Source: Malacoraja senta
Taxonomy: Eukaryota
Assembly: GCA_038087875.1 (NCBI GenBank)
Contig: CM075993.1
Span: 5,768,001 to 5,832,000, forward strand
DNA: 64,000 nucleotides
Direction: 5' to 3'
The notes under the pieces: model-generated
Told to the model about the DNA's origin: nothing
Database searches by the model: none
What the model saw: the letters and a program-made list of their open reading frames with translations, nothing else
In this document: piece after piece, positions 19,201-22,200 of the stretch
Position numbering within the stretch: the stretch's first letter is position 1
How the letters are laid out: every line of letters starts with the position of its first letter
Program-made: the position numbers and the translations under genes

Positions 19201-22200
19201 CTCTCAGTGGCTGACTTACAGTGGATGCAGTTTGTTGACAGATTCATCTTCATGCGTCCTTTGTAAATCCAGCTGCATCTTCGTGATCAGTGGAAGGCAG
19301 TATCCGTAGGCAATGTCCAGCTTTTCTTCCTTATTAATGCCATATTCCTACAGGAAGAAAAACAAAGTGTAAGGCTGCTAAACAGCAGTCCAGTAAAAGG
19401 GATACCAAGAGAGATCCTGCCCTCTTGACAAATGAGATCCAGGCAAAAGTTGTGCCCTCAAAACATCAAGAATAGAGGGGTCATGGTAAGCATACAGACA
19501 AGTTTTAGTTTTAGATCGAATGCAGGTCTCTGGTGCTGTAAGGCAGCAACTCTACCACTGTGCCACCATGTCGCTTAAATAATTAAGCTGGGAAAATTCA
19601 TGGGAGGTGGTCTTGGAGGGGAGGATGCTCCTCAAACTGCGGAGCATCTTGGACAATACAGCTCACCCCCTCCATGACACACTGGTCAACCCGAGGAGTA
19701 CCGTCAGCAACAGACTGGTCCCACCAAGATGCAGTACAGAATATCACAGGAGATCCTTCTTCCCTGTGGCTATCAAACTGTACAAATCCTCCCCCTTCTG
19801 TTGTGGGGTAGACGGAGACTGACTCCCCTCCCCCATCGTTGCACATCCCCAATCCTTTCCACTCATCACTTTAAATTTCAGGTTTCATGTATATTGTGTT
19901 TTATGACTGTTGGCAGATCAATTTCCCTCCTGGGGTAATCTATCATATCGTAGTTAGACAACAGGCCATTCCATTACAGCTGTGAAAAATATACATCATC
20001 TAGATGTGCTGGGACGCATCCTCACTGGTGATCTGGGGTCATCGGGTGTTTCGGGTCTCACAACATCAGACACCCTCGCCCAGGCGACCCAGCCGGGGTT
20101 GATCAGGCCCCGACTTGCGTCCCAGCAGCAACCGCCCATGGATCAGCCATCTTAGTAACTACTCTGCAGGGGTTGGGAGACTCTAGTGCGTGGAGGGACT
20201 GGGCTCTGTGGGGTGAGTCCTGGCCGGGCTCCTCCTGCGTTTCACCAGTTTCAAGGCCTGTGCGCTGCACCTCTTTCTCCTTCTCTGAGCATTTCATTCT
20301 CGCCCGATGGATTTTTAGGCCACGGTGTTTCAATAGGCCTTTCCGTAGCTTTATATGGTGACTTTCTCACGAAAGACACAGACTGGGGTGCTAACCCTGA
20401 CTTTCCCGGGTGCCGTCTTTCCGTGCCATCAACTGTCTCTCCAGTAGTCACCAAACTATTCTTGGTTGTCACCCAGTCTACTCCTAGGTGCCACTGGCTG
20501 AGCCAGACTTCAGTGTGAAAAATATACATCATCTAGATGCGCTGGGATGCATCCTCACTGATGTGATCTGGGGTCATCGGGTGTTTCGGGTCTCACAACA
20601 TCAGACACCCTCGACCAGGAGACCCAGCCGGGGTTGATCAGGCCCCGACTTGCGTCCCAGCAGCAACTGCCCACGGATCAGCCATCTTAATAACTACTCT
20701 GCAGGGTAAATACTGTGAAGAGGGTACAGCACAAATTCACAATTTGTCAATGATAGGGTAACAATAATTTAAAAGATTGCCAGTTTCAAAAGGCCAAACC
20801 CAGATTTAGCAGGATTTTCATTCTGTTAGGTTTTGATTGGGTGTATAAGTTAATGTGAAGAGTCTCTGTTTGATGATTCAGTGAGAAAGGACTCATCAAT
20901 TAAAAAAAAAAAAATCACTGAAACATTGATGGAAGGGATTCGCAGAAATATTCAACACTCAGGAATTCTTTGCCACAGTTACAGATTATGGTGAGATGCT
21001 TTACTTTTATTATTATTATTTTTTTAATTTTTATTTTTTTTATTTTTTTAAGGACTTAATGGATAACAGGGCCACAGGGCAATTAGAAGCACACTGGGTA
21101 GTGGACTTGGCATTGGATTGTGTTAGCCAAGATCCAACGTTAAGGCCTTCTGGTGATTCAAGCAGCCACTACTACTCATTTCAAATACCATCTTTTTTTT
21201 CCTTTTTTTTTTTTAAAAGAACTGTAGGTTTTTATTCTCACCAACTGTTTTCTTTTTACTGTTGAACAACCCTGCAATTTCTCAGTGCTTTATCAGTCCC
21301 ATAATAAACCAATCCCATCTCCTCAATAACTAGCATGTATACAGCTCATTAATACAGTAAAGCATCCCAAGATGCTTCACATGAGCAGTTAGACAAAGAA
21401 CGCCAGAGGAACAGATAGTAAGACAGGTAAACGAGCAACTTGATCAATAAAGTGGGTTTTAAGGAGTCCTCTAGGAGAGAGAAAAAGGCAGAAAGTTATT
21501 ATTTTAGTGGACAGTTGCGCAAACCACTGGCTGATTCTGCAAAACGTCATATCCCTACCAACCTCTCCTCACAAAACGCTCACAATGTCACTTGGTTGCT
21601 ATGCATTCCTGCAGGATGTGCATGGAACACAACTGTAATAGCGTCACACCATACAGGTGGAACTGCTGGTAAAGTTGCTGCCCTACGGTGCCAGAGAGCC
21701 GGGCTCAATCCTGACCTCGGGTTCTGTCTGTGTGGAGTTTGATCATTGTGTGTGATTGCTGGGCTTCCTCAAGGTGCTCCGGTTTCCTCCCACATTGGTT
21801 CATTGGCCTCTCAATAAACTCCTTACACACTCGGGGCAATTTAAAGTGGGATAGCATAGACCTAGCGTGAATGGGCGATCGATGGTCGGCGTGGACTCAG
21901 TGGGCCTGTTTCTATGCTGCATCTTTGGACCAATTCAATCAATACATGGACAAATTCATGAGTGATAAAGGGTCGTCAAGTTGACCAGTAAAGGTGATGA
22001 GAGGGAGATTAAAAGGGTGCTTGCAAACAAACCAGGCGATGAATGAGGCGATTATGGGACAAGGGCCTAGGGCTGTACGGGGGAACTCACAGCATGGGTC
22101 TTGGTCCTCAAATAATGCCAAGAAGAGGACCAATATTTCACGCCCAGGGAAACTGATGGGAGATTTGATAAAGATCCATTTATATTTCCCATGAAAATAT

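Follow-up and report, generated by a model that had tools for sequence, protein, structure and literature searches.

A predicted hammerhead-class RNA with a helix-bridged break between A9 and G10.1 in the 3′ untranslated region of HERO-like retrotransposons

Introduction

The nearest described relative of the RNA reported here is the type-SGC hammerhead, HRIMA-1 and a variant (Eckert et al. 2023, PMC10085705), which was reported only from metatranscriptomes and from no known organism's genome. Its blocks follow in the order S-G-C, its core is pseudoknotted and the link from stem I to stem II is short, as in the motif described below; a helix joins the far ends of stems I and II, and we liken it to the k-turn arm found here. 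The same text assumed that block C of the hammerhead is unbreakable. In our motif, unlike type-SGC, block C is interrupted: stem II takes its 5′ strand from upstream, and A9 leads into a clamp helix. The motif has a four-way junction and a k-turn besides, and the setting also differs, being a transposon within a eukaryotic genome. A hammerhead in which a pseudoknot replaces helix II is active (Zhan et al. 2024, PMC11300833); it resembles our motif in having a remodelled helix II with A9-G12 and G10.1-C11.1 retained, but its A9 and G10.1 are adjacent and its blocks stand in the classic order.

Self-cleaving RNAs are known from several retroelements. The hammerheads of Penelope-like elements and retrozymes (PMC6765202, PMC11167929, PMC4209133) likewise lie in the terminal repeat of a partially tandem retroelement, and unit-length and circular RNAs have been proposed for them as we propose here; a circular template was suggested for both groups (PMC6765202), and an internal start of reverse transcription was shown for a Penelope-like element (PMC11167929). 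Those ribozymes are mostly of minimal type I and belong to GIY-YIG elements, whereas ours is a large six-helix motif in an element encoding a reverse transcriptase (RT) and a restriction-like endonuclease (RLE). The HDV-like ribozymes of R2 and related elements (PMC6765202) are also self-cleaving RNAs of RLE-type non-LTR retrotransposons, cleavage being predicted in our case; they are of a different class, sit at the 5′ end and set the 5′ junction, whereas our motif is 3′ and no insert 5′ end fell at its cut. Elements of the HERO clade are described in PMC4640811 as RLE-type and mostly not site-specific, like the element examined here. A search of openly accessible literature found no report of a ribozyme or 3′ UTR structure for the HERO clade, of a HERO hammerhead, or of a natural helix-bridged A9/G10.1 break.

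Results

The window locus

The window is the whole 64,000-nucleotide stretch of Malacoraja senta DNA that was analysed; the genome set holding it is called G000 (the window is on contig C17), and L-numbers denote single loci. On the minus strand of 20545–20610 the hammerhead segments are as an earlier sequence-only reading had claimed, with the GAAA strand preceding the CUGANGA strand (S-G-C). The segment 20610–20604 reads GGGUGU-C17 and the stem I 3′ strand follows at 20603–20598; GACCC-GAAA occupies 20592–20584, from where the stem III strand runs on to 20579; and the stem I 5′ strand (20564–20559) leads into the core GUGAGGA (20558–20552), in which C3 is G, as that reading had remarked. The predicted cut also stands where it had been placed from the sequence (Table 1). 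A second copy of the motif lies 533 nt downstream, within the unit at 19981–20513; it too is C3G, and its stem I is short of 2 nt. Neither copy reads CUGAnGA, and judging by this lesion both are likely inactive, a suspicion already voiced for them. The two copies share three non-consensus bases, one of which is unique to the window locus. A target-site duplication was looked for at the window insertion and none was found.

Table 1. Parts of the two head-to-tail copies and of the RNA motif in the window (window coordinates; pairing percentages are from the family alignments)
Feature	Position	Strand	Remarks
Internally deleted HERO-like unit, 533 nt, non-autonomous	19981..20513	-	5′ region, N-terminal ORF remnant, ORF end, 3′ UTR
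5′-truncated upstream tandem copy (unit positions 343-533), head-to-tail with the 19981-20513 unit	20514..20706	-	
N-terminal zinc-finger ORF remnant	20151..20366	-	fish RT polyprotein matches, best E 1e-19
X′ strand, 5′ arm of the clamp helix	20651..20662	-	partner 20540-20551 (12 bp); helix 93.4% paired
Hairpin H1 of the four-way junction	20626..20650	-	92.2% paired; loop contains ORF stop codon and palindrome
True stem II 5′ strand	20621..20625	-	G10.1 equivalent is 20625; 89.7% paired
Non-bulged strand of the k-turn and 5′ arm of the return helix	20611..20619	-	84.1% paired; one mismatch in window copy
Block S: stem III strand, U16.1-C17, stem I 3′ strand	20598..20610	-	predicted cut 20604/20603
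Block G: stem II 3′ strand, GAAA, stem III strand	20579..20592	-	
3-nt bulge of the k-turn, GA, 3′ arm of the return helix	20568..20578	-	
Stem I 5′ strand and core C3-A9	20552..20564	-	window: G3 lesion; family: C3
X strand directly after A9, 3′ arm of the clamp helix	20540..20551	-	
Second copy, whole RNA motif	20008..20127	-	G10.1 at 20090; predicted cut 20069/20068; G3 at 20025

Six C3G copies cluster on C17 of G000 at 5.0–5.8 Mb, around the window, and contig C4106 repeats the window locus exactly, probably as an assembly duplicate.

The host element

The unit at 19981–20513 arose by internal deletion: the beginning of a fish RT polyprotein is encoded in its 5′ half, while the final codons of an autonomous partner, together with that partner's 3′ UTR, make up its 3′ end. 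A first look gave 1171 candidates for the 533-nt unit in G000, and the autonomous partner, whose ORF end is 520 residues or longer, gave 108 exact pattern matches there; L091 is a 3.6-kb copy of it. The partner, which has the same tail, shows the layout of HERO-type elements, that is, a single ORF with an N-terminal zinc finger, RT, a C-terminal zinc knuckle and RLE; a relative gave Pfam RVT_1 plus a weak zf-RVT match, and an RPD..ELT..K motif was read by eye. Protein homologs occur in bony fishes, lancelets and one bivalve, and include Takifugu Q76IN2 and Tetraodon Q7T1J8, which we take to be HEROFr and the tandem element Zebulon, respectively. The HERO-like character seen at first reading is borne out by layout and homologs, and the host element likely belongs to the HERO clade, a label drawn from the domain layout and the names of those two homologs rather than from a reference tree. 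Protein search found at least four diverged families of the element in G000, and a metagenome scan yielded 80 loci out of 227 confirmed. Protein-led scans of viral contigs gave no relative, and a PDB sequence search with P0011 gave no match.

Small contigs including C2172 of G000 (L224) hold arrays of 3856-bp period that contain a second HERO-like family, whose tail is broken inside the motif by another repeat; these arrays are likely a satellite-like amplification of a dead copy. The called ORF of one relative (P0010) starts inside what looks like the tail of an upstream copy (compare window 20150–20759, minus strand), and a reading frame can therefore apparently stay open across the tail-head junction.

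Block order and core letters across the family

Of the 80 metagenome loci, 13 had no tail and 10 had a tail of less than 200 nt, leaving 57 tails of at least 200 nt after the ORF-end motif. A descriptor of the S-G-C order with stems I and III matched 51 of these 57, against a shuffle mean of 0.125 (maximum 2 in 200 shuffles), and the non-circularly-permuted order first noticed in the window is thus a property of the family. When all helices were required, 39/57 tails passed, versus 0/120 viral and 1/120 prokaryotic control stretches that had been picked for GAAAC..CTGANGA among the matches listed. Motif scans of the viral and prokaryotic collections gave no convincing copy outside the element among the matches listed, and no Rfam family matched at gathering score, nor did anything relevant appear at E<=10. 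With G000 included there were 111 tails of at least 200 nt; 34 did not match the descriptor (most of them copies of one G000 family into which another repeat intrudes, the others decayed copies), and the 77 annotated tails were reduced to 29 representatives of less than 80% identity. These representatives are related, and counts over them are not independent events; their endonuclease ends are 50% identical at the median. Judged from these tails, the motif is clade-wide in a widespread group of animal retrotransposons.

Family members carry CUGAnGA beside stem I, GAAA with A15.1-U16.1, and an NUH site. Among the 29 representatives, position 17 is U in 14, C in 8, A in 7 and never G; position 7 takes all four bases; C15.2-G16.2 is present in 29/29; and the 10.1-11.1 pair, read with the upstream strand, is G-C in 24 and G-U in 3. 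A stems-only scan of the 80 loci, with core letters left unconstrained, returned GAAA, CUGAnGA, G10.1 and NUH in all 30 loci matched (the scan took its spacing windows from an earlier model, was run without a shuffle control, and gave one spurious second register in L134). Exact 17-mers of family A in G000 had C3 in 296 of 342, the remaining 46 having another base (21 G, 15 T, 10 A); conservation of CUGANGA, which the sequence-only reading had set as a check, is therefore found by both routes. By this comparison, the positions left free and those held fixed follow hammerhead rules. One metagenome contig with a broken ORF (L160) has U3 together with A8, a known natural covariation of the hammerhead 3-8 pair (PMC3088659); this single case is suggestive.

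Helices and covariation

We aligned the 29 representatives with MAFFT from sequence only. Stem II formed with the upstream strand, stem III and stem I were paired in 89.7, 96.4 and 92.3% of cells, respectively; stems I–III contained 106 cells with two-sided change, a value reached in 0/500 shuffles, and slid controls gave 36–41%. Covariation in all three stems had been put forward as a check: stems I and III passed it, but stem II as first drawn (GCGUC/GACCC) was paired in 51.8% and 43.7% of cells in its two registers, which is near chance, and that pairing was abandoned. The 5′ strand that pairs with the strand before GAAA lies instead 18–22 nt upstream of U16.1, with two-sided changes in 4/5 pairs, a G-C or G-U start in 27/29 representatives, and 5/5 pairs in 24/29. 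The type-SGC arrangement, with CUGAnGA running directly into the 5′ strand of stem II, was not seen; the strand after A9 pairs upstream.

The 12-bp long-range helix formed by that strand (X:X′, Table 1) had been regarded as a competitor of the ribozyme fold and proved to be a conserved part of it. In an alignment of 22 sequences (A3), hand-picked for similar H1 length, the six helices were 93.1% paired with two-sided change in 29/36 pairs; the clamp helix X:X′ was 93.4% paired with two-sided changes in 9/9 pairs, hairpin H1, between X′ and the stem II strand, was 92.2% paired, and the sixth helix (the k-turn arm) 84.1%, both covarying. RNAalifold, unaided, recovered X:X′, H1, the k-turn arm and stem III; in the single-sequence MFE fold the 5′ strand of stem II pairs elsewhere. 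The junction helices abut without unpaired bases in 25/28 representatives, by a scoring that favoured short links and with two or three of the 28 calls doubtful (L165 and L179 among them). Because the post-A9 strand and the partner strand of stem II pair separately upstream, and abut in this manner, the A9-G10.1 link appears from the alignments to be broken, with a four-way junction in its place.

A k-turn consists of a 3-nt bulge with tandem G-A and A-G pairs between two helices. This pattern was found in 24/29 representatives, a few with a weak second helix; in some others stem III extends by way of a large bulge instead. The far end of stem II passes through one base into the k-turn arm, the other strand of the arm leads through a few bases to the far end of stem I, and the link from stem I to stem II is 2–8 nt; these short links around the arm require a sharp bend below stem III. 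The arm, which covaries, occupies the place that matches the helix between the far ends of stems I and II in type-SGC, an equivalence drawn from the text of PMC10085705; because it sits there, the motif can be analysed as a circularly permuted type-SGC whose opening lies within block C.

Core lesions

All core bases were kept in only 40 of 71 family copies. C3 was changed in 8/71, against a median of 2.9% at other non-CpG C positions; G5, A6 and A14 had no changes in the 71 copies. Three autonomous-type loci (L070, L072 and L073) have A13U in common, along with one X-strand change, and their core-mutant source seems to have transposed; as this sub-lineage has apparently spread, some rounds may do without cutting. 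In family A of G000, change at C3 (the 46/342 given above) was several times background and neighbouring core bases were spared; one guess is that the excess represents RT errors at a modified base.

Insert ends, tandems and RNA reads

The 3′ end is constant from copy to copy and carries no poly(A), whereas the 5′ end varies; the 3′ ends match 0–4 bases of the unit start. In a set chosen by 3′ end, 10/10 copies that reached the unit start continued into a tail; the full-length autonomous copy L091 also begins with a piece of tail, and 9/47 metagenome tails run on into a next unit. The 5′ ends of inserts were examined in 30 of 49 junction copies: 12/30 run past the predicted cut, and 0/30 begin at unit positions 443–448, where that cut lies. 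A genome-wide pattern test gave 4 matches at the cut versus 7 at a control position, with about 1–2 true truncations in each. We therefore reject 5′ trimming like that of R2, insert 5′ ends showing no excess at the cut (0/30; 4 versus 7); since they ignore it, the 5′ end is not fixed by the ribozyme here, unlike in R2.

Tandem copies at the same locus share variants at 6.8 per 1000 columns, compared with 2.2 across loci (23 loci; 0/2000 permutations), C3G in both window copies being an example. This fits a circular template that is read more than once; a tandem source that is read through, or jumps from one RNA to another of the same locus, would account for it too. RNA reads from a related species (polyA, depth about 50) showed no pile-up at the cut; five reads start 3 nt upstream of it, which we do not count as support, and others cross freely. 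The RNA runs were shallow or consisted of contigs only. One of them, X11, contains a 3692-nt contig on L035, about one autonomous unit long, that joins the tail back to the 5′ region and assembles as a tandem or circular repeat would.

Discussion

On the alignments, a six-helix RNA is conserved in the 3′ UTR of these elements, with the full hammerhead core, the blocks in S-G-C order and stem II closed from upstream. We regard it as a new architecture of a known ribozyme class with predicted activity. In hammerhead geometry A9 pairs with G12 and stacks on G10.1-C11.1. The four-way junction would here be made of the A9-G12 pair, X:X′, H1 and stem II, and would hold A9 and G10.1 together; stem II would stack on the A9-G12 pair as usual, while X:X′ would stack on H1. 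The k-turn or large bulge would fold the end of stem III back, enabling the arm to reach the far ends of stems I and II and to take over the function that the I-II interaction helix has in type-SGC.

The main reading, to which we give a probability of roughly 55%, is that this hammerhead fold cuts tandem or read-through transcripts to unit length and that the product gives a likely circular template. Self-cleavage of intact copies, after NUH, is predicted with good confidence. The steps that follow are drawn more loosely: the cut unit may be ligated to a circle, or RT may jump between its ends; reverse transcription may start internally just after the tail; and cDNA could run past one unit to yield partial-plus-full tandems. 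We put the circle step slightly below an even chance. A role of the ribozyme in producing the tandem structure, as supposed from the window at the outset, is plausible. A point against the main reading is that a cut in the 3′-most tail would destroy a linear TPRT template. The widest claim, namely that A9/G10.1 is a fourth natural break point of the hammerhead, clade-wide in HERO, with four-way junction and k-turn, and that an autonomous LINE-type element replicates by way of self-cleaved circular RNA, is offered tentatively.

We consider it unlikely that the structure is a non-catalytic recognition tail for the RT protein of the element, merely resembling a hammerhead. Non-LTR proteins bind their template in this part of the RNA, the strand that follows A9 does belong to another conserved helix, the DNA ends and RNA reads examined carry no end signature, and core-mutant lineages appear mobile, all of which such a tail would accommodate. 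It would leave unexplained, however, why the missing strand of stem II is present upstream, its first base being G10.1 paired to C11.1, and it provides no reason for the absence of G at position 17 or for the freedom of N7; nor does protein binding account for G8, G12 and A15.1-U16.1 being fixed across proteins of 50% median identity.

There is also a small chance that the ribozyme is active without any circle, cutting host read-through or tandem transcripts or limiting expression, and that tandems come from template jumping by RT. The R2 RT is reported to jump from the end of its template to another RNA. All the ribozyme evidence applies here as well, partial-plus-full tandems are the product expected of jumping, and RNAs of one source locus would share variants too. 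Jumping would be expected, however, to leave many clean full-length ends, whereas all 10 start-reaching copies of the set chosen by 3′ end continue into a tail, so that the element seems to have no natural 5′ stop. That the RNA is an ordinary type-SGC hammerhead, its stem II made of the post-A9 and pre-GAAA strands once the long helix opens, is very improbable: 4/5 such pairs are possible in this family after one extra base, but across the representatives this pairing is the near-chance one described above, its covariation (0.195 and 0.171 in the two registers) is not above slid controls, and the best of five offsets never gave the 5/5 pairs that the upstream strand gives in 24/29.

If the reading of a cleaved transcript with a split block C is true, it would overturn the published premise that the blocks of a hammerhead cannot be broken up, a premise because of which descriptor and Rfam searches miss the motif, and it places a non-circularly permuted ribozyme in animal genomes in hundreds of copies per family. 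The family offers dozens of natural sequences for a cleavage assay, opens to experiment the question of how an R2-group element that lacks both poly(A) and a fixed 5′ end goes on yielding head-to-tail copies, and is relevant to the use of the 3′ UTRs of such elements as insertion templates.

Three smaller structural elements accompany the motif. The H1 loop holds the palindrome UGAUCA or UGGCCA in 16/29 representatives, and a GACG-type tip in 6 more; the palindrome, by its sequence, could be a kissing-loop dimer site joining two RNAs. A small terminal hairpin (window 20526–20540 and 19993–20007, minus strand) lies 3′ of the clamp helix, some 12 nt short of the fixed 3′ end, and is a candidate signal for the start of reverse transcription. 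The 5′ region (window ~20400–20505, minus strand) consists of successive short hairpins whose loops are rich in purines, with a UGAC-like word after each; this row is conserved in distant relatives (L128, L151, L158, L174, L182, L184 and L187), and is possibly a protein-binding array, a promoter or a translation element.
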